Positions 14,532-19,693 of a stretch of DNA of 64,000 nucleotides are shown in pieces. The first letter of the stretch is position 1. Each line of letters opens with the position of its first letter. Made by a program: the position numbers and the translations under genes. Source of the stretch: an uncultured Gemmatimonadales bacterium (GTDB lineage: Bacteria > Gemmatimonadota > Gemmatimonadetes > Gemmatimonadales > GWC2-71-9); the NCBI GenBank assembly GCA_963739455.1, contig CAVUAK010000001.1, positions 672,001-736,000 on the forward strand, written 5' to 3'. The notes beneath the pieces were generated by a model. The model was given only the letters and a program-made list of their open reading frames with translations. It was not told the DNA's origin and made no database searches.

Positions 14532-14548
14532 TGGATACGACAATTGAT

Positions 14549-14600
14549 TCGTGGTCATTTGCCGCGTATTGCAGCCACGTTAAACAAATGCTAAAAAGCG
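14549..14600 (+). ncRNA. SAM-II (SAM_alpha-like) riboswitch aptamer
   Basis: CGTGGTCATTTG...TTGCAGCCACGTTAAACAAATGCTAAAAAGCG. P1 CGTGG/CCACG, UUU loop, TTGC/GCTAA pairing and A-rich 3' end match the SAM-II consensus as I recall it. Lies upstream of sulfur amino-acid genes. Confidence 0.82.
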
Positions 14601-14603
14601 AGA

Positions 14604-14636
14604 CGTCCGCGCCTCGTTGCCGCGGGCGCTTTTTTT
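14604..14636 (+). terminator. Intrinsic terminator (riboswitch expression platform)
   Basis: Stem CGTCCGCG/CGCGGGCG followed by T7 (14630-14636). Confidence 0.75.
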
Positions 14637-14669: not shown

Positions 14670-15933
14670 ATGACCGCAGCCGCTGTTTCTCCGAAGGTGC
14701 GTGCGCTTCCGCTCCGGTGCCGCAATTGTGGCGTGGAGACCGAGCCGGCGCCCAAGGCCATCTGCGAAGAGTGCCTGGGACCGCTCGAGCCACTCTATGA
14801 TCCTGCGCGGCACTTGCCGACGCGTGCCGAGATTGGCGCGCGGGCAGCGTCGCTCTGGCGCTACCACGAGTGGCTGCCGCTCGAGGGCACCCCGCCCTAC
14901 TCCCTCGATACCGGGTTCACCCCGCTGGTAGAAGTGCCCCGCCTGGCACCACTGCTCGGCGTGGCGCGGGTGTGGGTGAAGAACGACGCGGTGTCACACC
15001 CGAGCCTGTCGTTCAAGGATCGCGTCGTTGCCGCCGCGATCAATGCGGCCGCGGCGTTCGGCATCGATACCGTCGGCTGCGCCTCCACCGGCAACCTGGC
15101 CAATGCCGTCGCCGCGCAGGCTGCCCGCGCCGGGCTGCCTGCCTGGATCTTCATCCCCGACAACCTCGAGCTGGGCAAGGTCGTGGGTACCTCCGTGTAC
15201 GCACCGAACCTCGTGCGCATCCGGGGCACCTATGACGACGTGAACCGGCTCTGTGCCCAGGTGGCCGATCGCTATGGCTGGGGCATCGTCAACGTGAACC
15301 TGCGCTCGTACTACGGCGAGGGATCGAAGACGGTCGCGTTCGAGATCGCGGAACAGCTCGGCTGGCGCCTGCCGACCGCGGTCGTGGCGCCGATGGCAGG
15401 CGGGTCGCTGGTGTCGAAGCTGGGGAAGGGATTCCGCGAGTTCATCTCGCGCGGGACTGGTGAACGGCGAATCGCCGCGGCTCTACGGGGCGCAGGCCAC
15501 GGGGTGCGCGCCGATCGTGCGGCTGGTCGAGCGCGGCGATGGCCAGCTCATTCCCGAGATCCCGGACACGATTGCGCGCTCGATCGCCATCGGCAACCCG
15601 GCGGATGGCGCGTACGCCGCCGAGTCGATCCGGAAGTCAGGTGGCTGGGCGGCGAGCGTGAGCGATGCCGAACTGGTGAAGGGGATCAAGCTGCTCGCCG
15701 AGACGTCGGGGATCTTCACCGAGACGGCTGGTGGGGTGACACTCGCAAGTGCGCTCGAACTGGCGCGCACCGGTCACTTCCGCGCGGACGACGAGGTAGT
15801 GCTCTGCATTACGGGGAACGGCCTCAAGACGGTCGAGGCCCTGAGCGGTTCATTGGATGAGGCACCGGTGCTGGCACCCCGCCTCCGTGACGTCGCGGAT
15901 CTCGTGGCGCGCACGTCGCAGAATTCACGCTGA
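14670..15933 (+). CDS. thrC: Threonine-synthase-family PLP enzyme, possibly an O-phosphohomoserine sulfhydrylase (frameshift near 15450)
   Basis: N-terminal CxxC...CxxC; SLSFKDR (PLP Lys); ASTGN; EGSKT; continues in ORF 15460..15933 (SIAIGNP, ETAGG, ITGNGLK). Confidence 0.85.
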
Positions 15934-15946
15934 GGAGGGATTCATC

Positions 15947-16222
15947 ATGTCCGTAACGCTTTCCCTGCCCGCTGTCCTGACCCGCCTCACCGATGGTGCC
16001 CGTACGCTCGAGGCGACCGGGGCCACGGTGGGCGATGTGGTACAGGATGTGGCCGGCCGGTTTCCGCAGCTCGCGCCGCGCCTGCGCGACGAGCAGGGCA
16101 ACCCATACTCCTTCGTGACGTTCTACCTGAACGACGAGGACATTCGCTTCACCGGTGGCTTTGCCACCGTCGTGCGGGACGGCGATGAGCTGATCATCGT
16201 GCCCGCCATTGCAGGAGGCTGA
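15947..16222 (+). CDS. MoaD/ThiS/CysO-family sulfur carrier protein
   Basis: 91 aa, [10 protein letters not shown]-terminal PAIAGG-stop; GAGGAGG RBS. Confidence 0.92.
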
Positions 16223-16226
16223 CTCC

Positions 16227-17397
16227 ATGACCACATCAATTGCCGCGGAGCCGCTGCCCGAGCTGGGCAACGACGAGATCCTCCGCTACAGCCGCCACCT
16301 GATCCTGCCCGAGTTCGGGCTCGAGGCCCAGCGCAAGCTCAAGGCATCGAGCGTGCTCGTCGTCGGGAGCCGGCGGGCTCGGCTCGCCGCTGGGCCTCTA
16401 CCTGGCTGCCGCCGGTGTCGGCCGGCTTGGCATCGTGGACTTCGACGTCGTTGATGCCACCAACCTGCAGCGGCAGATCATTCACGGTACCGCTGACGTC
16501 GGTCGCCCGAAGCTCGACTCGGCGCGCGACCGCATCCAGGGGCTTAACCCGCACGTGGATGTGCAGACCTACGAGGGGCGCTTCACGTCGGCCAACGCGC
16601 TCGAGATTGCGCGCGACTACGACCTCGTCATCGACGGCACGGACAACTTCCCGACGCGCTACCTGGTGAACGACGCGTGCGTGCTGCTGGGCAAGCCCAA
16701 CGTGTATGGCAGCATTTTCCGCTTTGAGGGGCAGGCCTCCGTGCTCGCGACGGACAGCGGGCCTTGCTATCGCTGCCTGTTCCGTGAGCCGCCACCCCCG
16801 GGCATGGTGCCGAGCTGCGCTGAAGGCGGCGTGCTCGGCGTGCTGCCAGGGCTCATTGGCGTGATCCAGGCCACGGAGGCGATCAAGCTGCTCACCGGCA
16901 TCGGCGAGCCGCTCATCGGCCGGCTGCTCCTGGTGGACGCACTGCGCATGCAGTTCCGCACGCTGAAGTTGCACCGTGACCCACTGTGCCCCGCGTGCGG
17001 CACGCGCGAGATCCAGTCGCTGATCGACTACGAGCAGTTCTGCGGGTTGAACGACGTGGACAGCAGCGTGGATGCCACCATTCCGGAGCTGACACCGAAG
17101 CAGCTCGCCGCGCGCATCGAGCGGGGCGATGACTTCGACCTGATCGACGTCCGCGAGCCGCAGGAGTGGGCGATCGCCCAGCTTCCCGGCGCGCGGCTCA
17201 TTCCGCTGGGCACACTCCCCGCGGCGCTGGGTTCGCTGGACAGCGCTCGCGAGGTGGTGATCTACTGCAAGGGTGGTGTGCGGAGCCTTCGCGCGGCGAC
17301 GCAACTGCGCGCTGCCGGGTTCCGCAAGGTGTCGAACCTCACTGGCGGCATCCTGCGCTGGAGCAGCGATGTCGACCCCAGCGTGCCGACCTACTGA
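16227..17397 (+). CDS. moeB: MoeB/MoeZ adenylyltransferase-rhodanese fusion (frameshift near 16370)
   Basis: [10 protein letters not shown]; GxGGLG split by the frameshift; [34 protein letters not shown]-terminal rhodanese YCKGGVRS. Confidence 0.92.
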
Positions 17398-17489
17398 TGA
17401 CGTACCTGCCGAGCATGCCCATGCCCTGTTGTTGTGACCGTTGCATGCGACGGTCGGGGCTGGGGCATGTCCGGTGGTCACCGCCATAG
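17397..17489 (+). CDS. Putative cysteine-sensing leader peptide [30 protein letters not shown] (30 aa)
   Basis: ATG overlaps the moeB stop (TGATG). TGT-TGT-TGT-GAC-CGT-TGC at 17427-17444. Followed by a terminator and then a sulfurtransferase gene. Confidence 0.75.
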   Translation: MTYLPSMPMPCCCDRCMRRSGLGHVRWSPP

Positions 17490-17519
17490 CGGCGCAACGA
17501 CCAGTGCATGCATCACCCC

Positions 17520-17551
17520 GACCCACCGACACCCGGTGGGTCTCTTTTTTT
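17520..17551 (+). terminator. Attenuator terminator upstream of the sulfurtransferase
   Basis: GACCCACCG-acacc-CGGTGGGTC followed by TCTTTTTTT. Confidence 0.85.
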
Positions 17552-17586
17552 CACCAAGGCCCGATTCACACTGAGGAGAATGAACG

Positions 17587-18486
17587 ATGACTGCCACTCG
17601 CCCCGCGCCAACCACCGCCACGGCCCCCATCGAGGAGCGTGGATATGCCCGCCCCGACGTGCTCGTGTCTACCACCTGGCTGGCTGACAACCTCGATGAC
17701 CCGAAGCTCCGCCTGCTGGAGAGCGATGAGGACGTGCTGCTCTATGACCTGGGGCACATTCGCGGCGCACAGAAGATCGACTGGCACGACGACCTGAATG
17801 ACCCGGTGGTTCGTGACTACATCAACGACGCGGGCTTCGAGCGCCTGCTTCGGCGGCTGGGCATCGACCAGACCACAACGGTGGTGCTCTACGGCGACCG
17901 GAACAACTGGTGGGCCACATATGCGTTCTGGGTGTTCCGGCTCTTTGGTTTTCCCGAGTCGCAGCTGCGCCTGCTCGACGGTGGGCGCGCCGCGTGGGAG
18001 GCAGAGGGCCGGCCCCTCGTCACCTCGCTCAAGTCCTTCACCGCAAGCCGGTATCGCGGTCCCAGGCGCGACGACAGCGGCATTCGCGCATTCCGGGAGG
18101 AAGTACTGGAGCATTCAGCGCGGGGCCGTCCACTGATCGACGTACGGTCGCCCGACGAGTTCACCGGCCGCAAGCTGCACCTGGTGGAGTATCCGCAGGA
18201 GGGAGTGCTGCGCGGCGGCCATGTGCCGGGGGCGAGCAACGTGCCGTGGGCGCGCGCGGCCAGCACCAACGGGACCTTCAAGGACGCTGAGACACTGCGT
18301 GACATCTACGAGGGCGAGGCCGGCCTCAGGAAGGGCGACAGTGTCATCACCTACTGCCGCATTGGCGAGCGGTCGAGCCATACCTGGTTCGTGCTGACGT
18401 ACTTGCTGGGCTATTCGAAGGTGCGGAACTACGACGGCAGCTGGACAGAGTGGGGCAACGCGGTAGGACTGCCGATCGAGAAGTAG
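17587..18486 (+). CDS. Tandem-domain thiosulfate sulfurtransferase (rhodanese, CysA/SseA type)
   Basis: GHIRGA, LLDGG, GGHVPGA, active site [26 protein letters not shown]. Confidence 0.93.
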
Positions 18487-18549: not shown

Positions 18550-19026
18550 CTACTTGTTGAAGACCGCCGAGAACTTCTGGGCCGCGTCCGGACCGGACTT
18601 CGCGCTCACGATGTCGGTCATCGCGGGCACCATCTTCTGGAACTGGTCCTGCGAAACCCCGGCGTTCTTCAGCGAGCCCGACAGGCTCGTCAGCCCCACC
18701 ATCTCGCTGGGCATGCCCAGCTTGGAGCCTTGCCTGATGAGGTTGTCGCTTCCGGGAAAGGCGCTTGCCACCTGCCTGAAATCGGCTGGTTGCATTTGGC
18801 TCTGCGCATAGAAGAGTATGCCGCCCATGGCGTTGGCAGTCTGCAGCTGGGTCAGTTCCGGCACGGACTTCTGCACCTGGCTGACCACCTCGTTGGAGGC
18901 GCCGAGCGGATTCGGCAGGGGCTCCGTGCCGGCCGATGACTGGGGGTGGCTGCACGCTCCCACCACGGCCACGCACGCGAGTGTCGAACCGAAGACCCTG
19001 ACCGACTTCATTGCAAGCGATACCAT
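18550..19026 (-). CDS. Lipoprotein, DUF2780-like, paralog A
   Basis: Lipobox VGA-C; GGILFYAQSQMQPADF...FPGSD; GGAGG RBS. Confidence 0.65.
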   Translation of the reverse strand: MVSLAMKSVRVFGSTLACVAVVGACSHPQSSAGTEPLPNPLGASNEVVSQVQKSVPELTQLQTANAMGGILFYAQSQMQPADFRQVASAFPGSDNLIRQGSKLGMPSEMVGLTSLSGSLKNAGVSQDQFQKMVPAMTDIVSAKSGPDAAQKFSAVFNK

Positions 19027-19166
19027 ACGAACCTCCGTTGATGGCGTAAGCAGGCTCAGTGAAGCCGTCGGGCTACACTGGCACCTGTACCTTCGCATCA
19101 TACGGTCGGCAGGAAGGTCCCACTAGGGAGGGTCGAACGGCCTATGCCTGGTCGGGCGCGCCTCGC

Positions 19167-19201: not shown

Positions 19202-19693
19202 CTAGCTCCTGAACACCGCCGCGAACTTGTCGGCGACCTCAGCTCCCTCCTTCTCCTTCACGACCTCTGTCATGGCGGGAACGAGCTGGTTGAACTGATC
19301 CCGGGAAATCCCGATGTTCTTGAGCGAGCCCGACAAGCTCGTGAGCCCATACATCTCGCTGGGCATGCCGAGCCTGGTGCCTTGATTGATCATCGCATCA
19401 CTTCCCGGAAACGAGTTCTTCACCTTCCTGAAATCGGCCGGCTGCATCGAACGCTGTGCATAGTACAGGATGCCGCCCATGCCCTGTGCTATCTGCGTCG
19501 GGGTCAGCCCGGGCACCGCACCCTGAACCTCGTTGACCACCGGCGCGGAGGAATGGAGCGGGTACTGCAGCGCAGCAGGCGCGCCGGGCGCCTGCGTGGC
19601 GCCATTCCCACTACAGGCAGCCGCGAGCGCGAGCACCGCGCATGCGAGGGTGGAGCCGACAAACCTCCCTGGTCGAGCCGCAATCATTGCCAT
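19202..19693 (-). CDS. Lipoprotein, DUF2780-like, paralog B
   Basis: Lipobox AAA-C; core nearly identical to paralog A (LGMPSEM.GLTSLSGSLKN). Confidence 0.65.
   Translation of the reverse strand: MAMIAARPGRFVGSTLACAVLALAAACSGNGATQAPGAPAALQYPLHSSAPVVNEVQGAVPGLTPTQIAQGMGGILYYAQRSMQPADFRKVKNSFPGSDAMINQGTRLGMPSEMYGLTSLSGSLKNIGISRDQFNQLVPAMTEVVKEKEGAEVADKFAAVFRS

Follow-up and report, generated by a model that had tools for sequence, protein, structure and literature searches.

A putative cysteine- and methionine-responsive leader-peptide attenuator within a sulfur operon of a Gemmatimonadales bacterium

Introduction

Among the leader-peptide attenuators related to trpL of E. coli and hisL of Salmonella in their principle, thrL and ilvL have a dual input. 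Attenuators are also found between two genes, as is the case of rph-pyrE, where the attenuator senses UTP via polymerase pausing. The passages describing this E. coli system present an intercistronic attenuator whose read-through depends on the ribosomes of the upstream gene (10.1101/162834).

As far as cysteine is concerned, the mycobacterial element Ms5788A is a leaderless short ORF (sORF) with a polycysteine run. According to the sections dealing with its mechanism, it acts by occlusion of a Shine-Dalgarno (SD) sequence, and cysteine had no effect on a transcription reporter (10.1101/834739). The mycobacterial class is described, in the parts of the two sources that concern it, as leaderless and acting on translation (10.1101/834739; PMC13236596). 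In a passage of the same 2020 paper, attenuation for cysteine by an upstream ORF (uORF) is said to be previously undescribed (10.1101/834739). Cys runs also occur in actinobacterial leader ORFs located before cysteine genes; the passage on these leaders reports no conserved terminator hairpins and suggests Rho dependence (PMC1262725). In Rhodobacterales, uORFC-8-2, which precedes cysS, is predicted from tandem Cys codons and an intrinsic terminator, as stated in the passage devoted to it (PMC8632094). Cys leaders are not mentioned in the accessible part of PMC2965389.

A route to homocysteine involving MetM, MetO, MoeZ and Mec was described by Hasebe et al. (2024), as summarised in a passage of 10.1101/2024.10.14.618325. 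Below, we examine a short Cys- and Met-rich ORF followed by a terminator within an operon containing homologues of some of these genes. A search of the literature outside subscription journals and supplements found no paper on leaders of this type in Gemmatimonadota.

The host operon

The window is a stretch of 64,000 nucleotides from an uncultured Gemmatimonadales bacterium. The operon runs from a SAM riboswitch through a threonine-synthase-like gene, a MoaD-like carrier and moeZ to the leader with its terminator, and then to a sulfurtransferase gene:

14541..14613, plus strand: SAM-II (SAM_alpha, RF00521) riboswitch aptamer at the operon head (Rfam, 40.8 bits for a gathering score of 36)
14601..14636, plus strand: hairpin and T7 tract, probable riboswitch terminator (sequence and fold)
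14670..15933, plus strand: threonine-synthase-like PLP enzyme (NCBIfam thrC matches on both pieces)
15947..16222, plus strand: MoaD/ThiS-like sulfur carrier with a Gly-Gly end (NF041918 and TIGR01687, both below cut-off)
16227..17397, plus strand: moeZ-type gene (MoeB and rhodanese; NF005646, NF005902), whose stop overlaps the leader start
17573..17578, plus strand: SD-like GAGGAG of the sulfurtransferase gene (sequence)
17587..18486, plus strand: sulfurtransferase (tandem rhodanese), last gene and proposed regulated gene (NF008557, E 4.9e-29, below cut-off)

An earlier note made from the sequence overlooked the riboswitch at the operon head. This match (14541-14613) is the sole Rfam family of the window at gathering scores. 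SAM_alpha, described as an alphaproteobacterial riboswitch, is detected above cut-off in 131/151 genomes of the order; no paper on its presence in this order was found in the literature searched, that is, outside subscription journals and supplements. The name moeB initially given to the upstream gene is right for its MoeB part; the full gene combines MoeB with a rhodanese, as in MoeZ, its best matches (NF005646 and NF005902) being below the cut-offs on the fragment scanned. On the basis of the literature summary cited above, the threonine-synthase-like enzyme is possibly a homocysteine synthase of the MetM type. Both the thrC-like gene and moeZ are frameshifted by single extra bases, near 15449 and near 16368, respectively. 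Because one base is missing at 15449 and at 16368/16369 in related contigs (from four contig sets of related strains), these frameshifts are probably assembly errors.

Two PF00581 stretches are found in orthologues of the sulfurtransferase. Its transfer from family f2 was considered, as the protein nests among f2 proteins in a 62-row tree, yet an AU test on 27 rows, for which the quick free search was suboptimal, does not reject a topology with the f1 rows together (p 0.647), and this scenario was not retained. A paralogous sulfurtransferase at C1:1010981 is also broken into pieces. The paralogous sulfurtransferase clade (about 60% identity; L009, L013, L017, L018, L024 and L026) has no leader upstream, and by eye these six share a repressor-operator-like motif between the -35 and -10 boxes. 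On the 3' side of the operon, two tandem paralogous lipoprotein-like ORFs are found on the minus strand (18550-19101 and 19202-19693).

The leader ORF and its start

17397..17489, plus strand: leader ORF of 30 codons with 4 Cys and 4 Met (ORF list and sequence; conserved in L002, L003, L033 and L212)
17415..17435, plus strand: predicted control codons Met7, Met9 and Cys11-13 (codon-by-codon ribosome-mask folding), within a modelled sensing window of about codons 6-15

The leader ATG overlaps the moeZ stop (TGATG) and begins on its last base. Three consecutive TGT codons at 17427-17435 and one TGC at 17442 encode the four Cys residues, so that the ORF is present as the earlier note had described it; consecutive Cys codons in a short ORF are also a feature of the mycobacterial polycysteine class. 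The Cys run, on whose conservation that note had made its reading depend, is kept in 5/5 close loci, whereas Cys16 is not conserved. Within the genus, the leader peptide is well conserved. In the five close loci, the leader ends with Pro-stop, the stop being located in the loop of a small hairpin (17484-17493); a C-terminal Pro can slow termination.

The location of the leader after moeZ, and not in the 5' leader of the operon, departs from the usual position of attenuators. An in-frame ATG is found 0-4 nt from the moeZ stop (overlap, 1 nt or 4 nt) in the five leader loci, with N-termini differing in length and sequence, and at that place in none of seven moeZ loci without the leader. In the same five loci, there is neither an SD sequence before Met1 nor a promoter-like site suitable for a start at any early Met (best case, 7/12 consensus matches; sites with both key -10 bases scored at most 6). 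These features indirectly support the coupling to the upstream gene that was first proposed, and suggest that the leader is probably fed by a stop-start mechanism at the end of moeZ. Strict stop-start overlap is not universal, since the junction between moeZ and the leader carries 11 additional bases in one related contig. Moreover, leaders linked to riboswitches (L330, L338 and L359) are also devoid of an SD sequence, and uncoupled starts may therefore be possible in this lineage.

The same genome contains a second leader (G000:C1:2070971, minus strand, in L521), with 32 codons, 4 Cys, 5 internal Met and a terminator. The gene that follows passes TIGR01326 (O-acetylhomoserine sulfhydrylase family) and belongs to the metY family. 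The same switch is modelled over codons 4-13 of this leader. Since promoter-like hexamers, identified by eye, end 5 nt before its ATG, it looks leaderless.

RNA helices and modelled switch

about 17402..17481, plus strand: long anti-antiterminator stem, with hairpin 1:2 (17436-17443 with 17448-17455) as its tip (folding)
17452..17459, plus strand: segment 2 (5' antiterminator strand), located in Arg-Ser-Gly codons, for which most relatives have Arg-Pro-Gly
17516..17523, plus strand: segment 3, 3' strand of the antiterminator, overlapping the lowest 4 bp of the terminator
17520..17551, plus strand: intrinsic terminator, with a 9-bp stem (17520-17542), a 5-nt loop and a U-tract to 17551 (about -17 kcal/mol)

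The four segments originally quoted begin at 17436, 17447, 17452 and 17516. Hairpin 1:2 (8 bp, 4-nt loop) is indeed predicted at 17436-17455, not as an isolated element but as the tip of the much longer stem, in which 8/9 Cys-codon bases are unpaired. This fold has a z-score of -2.9, with 1/200 shuffles equally stable. When a ribosome mask is placed on Cys12/13 of a nascent RNA ending in the terminator loop, the pairing probability of 2:3 is 0.97-0.99; it is 0.02 with the ribosome at the stop codon and 0.00 without ribosome. This modelled switch is stable across three footprint sizes. The permissive window (about codons 6-15) contains Met7 and Met9, where stalls give P(2:3) values of 0.94-0.99, as well as Cys11-13; Cys16 is at its edge and Met17 outside. 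In full-length RNA at equilibrium, the terminator of the window is favoured in every state (0.93-0.97 even with a stalled ribosome), and therefore the switch has to be kinetic. In 13/23 leaders, the equilibrium model also gives the antiterminator a probability above 0.5 when the ribosome is at the stop codon, and in 14 it does so without ribosome; for the close relative L002, the value is 0.94 with the ribosome at the stop. The folds extended to 17560, short of the SD sequence at 17573. A pairing of the Cys codons with 17495-17501, spotted by eye, found no support in these folds, and no Rfam family matched 17397-17551 at gathering scores.

The 2:3 pairing is present in 173/207 alignment cells, as compared to 58-140 for slid registers and to 0/2000 column shuffles reaching 173, in a test that is generous given related rows and a GC-rich, nearly palindromic helix. 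In this test, segment 2 was anchored by the frame and segment 3 by an alignment column, the anchor being picked near the best duplex; MAFFT had displaced segment 2 by one column in 8/23 rows and by five in one row. At one 2:3 column, U-A is found in 4 close loci, C-G in 18 and U-G in 1; the change between U-A and C-G counts as one event, and independent double-sided changes backing 2:3 amount to about one only. Ribosome-mask folding and alignment pairing both argue for the initial assignment of helices 1:2, 2:3 and 3:4, and for a ribosome-mediated attenuator with an intrinsic terminator.

Cys-rich short ORFs near gene ends are not rare, since 18/78 short ORFs starting near 2462 gene ends contain at least 3 Cys. 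Terminator-like sites occur twice in 4 kb, for a shuffle mean of 1.9. Of 259 frames ending 40-70 nt before 363 genomic terminator-like sites, only two have 4 Cys in the scored 20-codon window, and both precede sulfur genes (the window leader and C1:2070971 on the minus strand). Hence, the ORF and the terminator are each unremarkable alone, and their combination is rare. A further coupled Cys-rich ORF (C1:1721140) was rejected, being antisense within a kinase-like gene.

A family of leaders in the order

Up to 480 nt were examined upstream of 139 sulfurtransferase homologues (29 + 107 + 3, the group of 107 being a selection from 150 listed of 254 matches). A hairpin followed by a U-tract was detected in 29 of these regions and none was detected in the other 110. 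The search for Cys-run sORFs suggested in the earlier note gave a Cys-containing leader of the same layout in 24 of the 29 terminator-bearing regions, from 9 genera and 2 families (four leaders were called by eye and one is degenerate). Two of the five remaining regions have a SAM riboswitch alone; in the other three, the hairpin is weak and no convincing leader is seen. G003 (L033) brings the total to 25 leaders, distributed among genus g1 (family f1), eight genera of family f2 and one metagenome contig; its leader is intact, its terminator and sulfurtransferase start are deleted and the gene is truncated, through decay or misassembly. From these comparisons, the window leader is one member of an order-wide family usually found first in the transcript. 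Thus, the mid-operon position first noted stands, while the idea of a lone invention does not.

The distance from the leader stop to the U-tract is 46-65 nt in 23/24 cases. The leaders are 25-63 residues long (15 in the degenerate case) and have unrelated N-termini; the only other conservation in the peptide concerns residues for which the antiterminator strand codes. Over 25 leaders, Cys accounts for 109/915 residues (11.9%, against 0.8% in the long ORFs of the genome, about 15-fold) and internal Met for 60/915 (6.6% against 2.1%, about 3-fold). TGT is used for 62 of the 109 Cys and TGC for 47, the share of TGT being 18% in the genome. The frequency of Cys is highest 6-9 codons ahead of segment 2, and no Cys occurs in the nine codons starting at segment 2. 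Stand-alone leaders have a canonical leaderless geometry in five cases and a looser form in five more, and the leaders of L330, L338 and L359 directly follow a SAM_alpha riboswitch. Downstream of the sulfurtransferase, cysK is found above cut-off in 4/4 such genes scanned. In G151, the same genes are rearranged: the leader and the sulfurtransferase come first, and a homoserine kinase joins the threonine-synthase homologue, carrier and MoeZ set.

The module as arranged in the window is present in 4/12 genomes of the genus, and beyond moeZ no other genus matched in 401 genomes of the family. Searching these 401 genomes with the leader DNA retrieved the window and two same-genus genomes, the remainder being noise at a loose threshold. 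A gapped pattern matched 30/401 genomes, with a similar number of control matches, and added G304. Loose pattern scans of genome and metagenome contigs gave at least 120 and at least 119 loci, numbers with no bearing on the distribution outside the order; among the matches listed, the contig scans added L212, and L159 has the same operon and type of leader, its leader repeating one already counted.

Several other loci came to light. At L439:7603-7860, APS kinase and PAPS reductase genes are preceded by another leader in mid-operon position, which has 46 codons and 3 Cys and begins 14 nt downstream of a stop; a strong hairpin comes after it, with a U-tract of poor quality. Possible leaders in front of purE-like genes (L085-L088) were not retained. 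One of the riboswitch-leader tandems of L495, L515, L518, L519 and L520 is Cys-rich and precedes an osmC-like gene and probable sulfate-assimilation genes.

Methionine codons deserve attention. Met is found at codon -10 in 12/23 leaders. Because the modelled sensing window includes Met7 and Met9, a response to both Cys and Met is plausible and can reasonably be proposed from the model. The label "polycysteine" first given to the sensor is therefore apt for Cys11-13 and too narrow for the whole, Met7 and Met9 lying in the same modelled window and Cys16 being unconserved and at its edge. In L443 (7572-7890), a SAM_alpha riboswitch and terminator are followed by a leader of 31 codons, which contains 6 Met and lacks Cys, and then by a second terminator, before a metX-like gene; this leader is a candidate methionine attenuator in tandem with the riboswitch. 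Met-rich, Cys-poor leaders with a second terminator after a SAM riboswitch occur in L443, L515, L518 and L520. The Met-rich tandems among L495, L515, L518, L519 and L520 precede aminotransferase-like or PanB-like genes, named by eye. Such a Met-rich leader was found in 5/51 riboswitch loci scored and in 0/17 more examined separately.

Proposed mechanism and alternatives

Several features of classical attenuators are found at this locus and in its relatives: an ORF enriched in control codons, an intrinsic terminator and a conserved antiterminator that excludes the terminator. Supply of the sensed amino acid is suggested by cysK, which follows in relatives, and by the metY-family gene located after the paralogous leader; for the sulfurtransferase of the window, such a role is presumed. 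With good confidence, we propose a classical ribosome-mediated transcription attenuator that would sense charged tRNA-Cys, and probably also tRNA-Met, and would control the last gene of the operon. A ribosome finishing moeZ would restart on the overlapping ATG. When sulfur amino acids are plentiful, it would proceed to the leader stop and cover segment 2, which would then re-pair upstream; the terminator would form and the transcript would end near 17551. When Cys-tRNA (or Met-tRNA) is short, stalling at codons 7-13 would open the long upstream stem, segment 2 would pair with segment 3 ahead of the synthesis of segment 4, and the polymerase would read into the sulfurtransferase gene. Without ribosome, the default would be termination.

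Since a SAM riboswitch heads the operon, the sulfurtransferase is probably under two controls, and would require low SAM together with low Cys/Met-tRNA. A bolder reading, which we regard as doubtful, is that three inputs gate this gene on one transcript: low SAM, complete translation of moeZ, which alone would supply the leader with ribosomes, and a shortage of either Cys- or Met-tRNA. If it were true, the wider family would include methionine-sensing leader-peptide attenuators, some of them in tandem with a SAM riboswitch, of which no description was found in the literature searched, subscription journals and supplements being outside that search.

The alternatives bear on the entry of ribosomes, on the nature of the signal and on the role of the ORF. 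The same attenuator could have a leader started without moeZ, from an internal promoter or de novo at Met7 or Met9, its place after moeZ being a chance outcome of how the genes are ordered. Weak SD-like pairing (-1.8 to -3.2 kcal/mol) ahead of the second conserved Met, the riboswitch-linked members that begin with neither SD sequence nor adjacent upstream gene, the 11-base junction insertion and the L439 leader that begins 14 nt after a stop all point in this direction. Nevertheless, we consider such a start rather unlikely, in view of the lack of a promoter-like site in the 5 loci, of the burial of Met7 and Met9 inside the long stem, and of an ATG kept in frame beside the stop through three spacings and missing where the module is missing. 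It is quite possible, though not what we would expect, that the sensor responds to Cys only and that the Met codons are incidental: the enrichment is about 15-fold for Cys and about 3-fold for Met, some members (L330, L356) contain only one Met, or no Met, close to the sensing window, and Met17 is outside the sensing window. The recurrence of Met at codon -10, the P(2:3) values obtained for stalls at Met7 and Met9, and the Met-rich, Cys-poor leaders before metX-like and other SAM-controlled genes (L443, L515, L518, L520) argue for a methionine input.

More radically, the locus could be the usual leaky terminator of an operon, or an RNA switch that works by structure alone and responds to a protein or a metabolite, with the Cys ORF as a by-product of a conserved RNA sequence. 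Short frames rich in Cys are frequent (18/78) in a genome as GC-rich as this one, and the terminator dominates at equilibrium; moreover, the Cys codons are DNA-identical in the five close loci, which therefore cannot separate coding from RNA constraint. Over the 25 leaders, however, both Cys codons are used, and the leader frame is open in 23/23 whereas stops interrupt the two other frames in 4 and 6 leaders (the frame being partly chosen on Cys). The Cys codons are also mostly unpaired in the fold of this leader, Rfam has no family at this locus at gathering scores, and this explanation appears very improbable. Even less credible is a functional peptide, for instance a small metal- or sulfur-binding protein. 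Its conservation within the genus would be in keeping with such a role, and a Cys/Met cluster could bind metal; the variable length (25-63), the unrelated N-termini and the restriction of other conserved residues to those encoded by the antiterminator strand argue against it.

Comparison with known systems

The locus resembles the leaders of E. coli trpL and Salmonella hisL by its short ORF with control codons, its 1:2, 2:3 and 3:4 helices and its intrinsic terminator, as well as by the distance of about 15 nt between control codons and segment 2. It differs from them by Cys and Met as control codons, by its location between operon genes 3 and 4, by a start that overlaps the upstream stop and by a riboswitch acting upstream. 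The rph-pyrE attenuator, as far as the passages on it go, similarly lies between two genes but has no dedicated leader ORF.

With Ms5788A-type sORFs, as presented in the sections cited above, the window leader shares a Cys run as sensor and a sulfurtransferase (cysA2) among the controlled genes, and several of its stand-alone relatives share the leaderless geometry. By contrast, it has a conserved terminator and antiterminator and is not leaderless; the two are likened by input, not by homology. The mycobacterial precedent invoked at the outset is accordingly pertinent for its input and not for its mechanism: the tested element, in the sections concerned, works by SD occlusion and not by termination, and is therefore an analogue by input only. 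The actinobacterial cys leaders, as described in the passage on them, have in common with the window leader the Cys-run ORFs, not the terminator hairpin. As for uORFC-8-2, it is found in another phylum and precedes cysS, not a sulfurtransferase gene; its motif was compared by description, and the passage on it describes no mid-operon coupling (PMC8632094). Judging from the same passage, the only prior terminator-type Cys leader found in print is a prediction (PMC8632094). The present family offers some two dozen naturally occurring variants of a Cys/Met sensor of the terminator type, and the element is of a size suited to reporter assays.

The host operon recalls the MetM/MetO/MoeZ/Mec route, within the summary cited above, by a threonine-synthase homologue, a sulfur carrier and MoeZ (family-level matches only), here under a SAM riboswitch; it differs from it by the sulfurtransferase, which is an optional add-on. 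A little-studied soil phylum may in this way layer a SAM riboswitch and tRNA-charge sensing on its sulfur metabolism. The window copy raises the question of whether stop-start coupling can feed a mid-operon leader peptide; with such coupling, the downstream gene would require its partner to be translated in full. Overall, the principle is that of textbook attenuation, and what sets this locus apart is its mid-operon position and its probable start from the stop codon of the previous gene.
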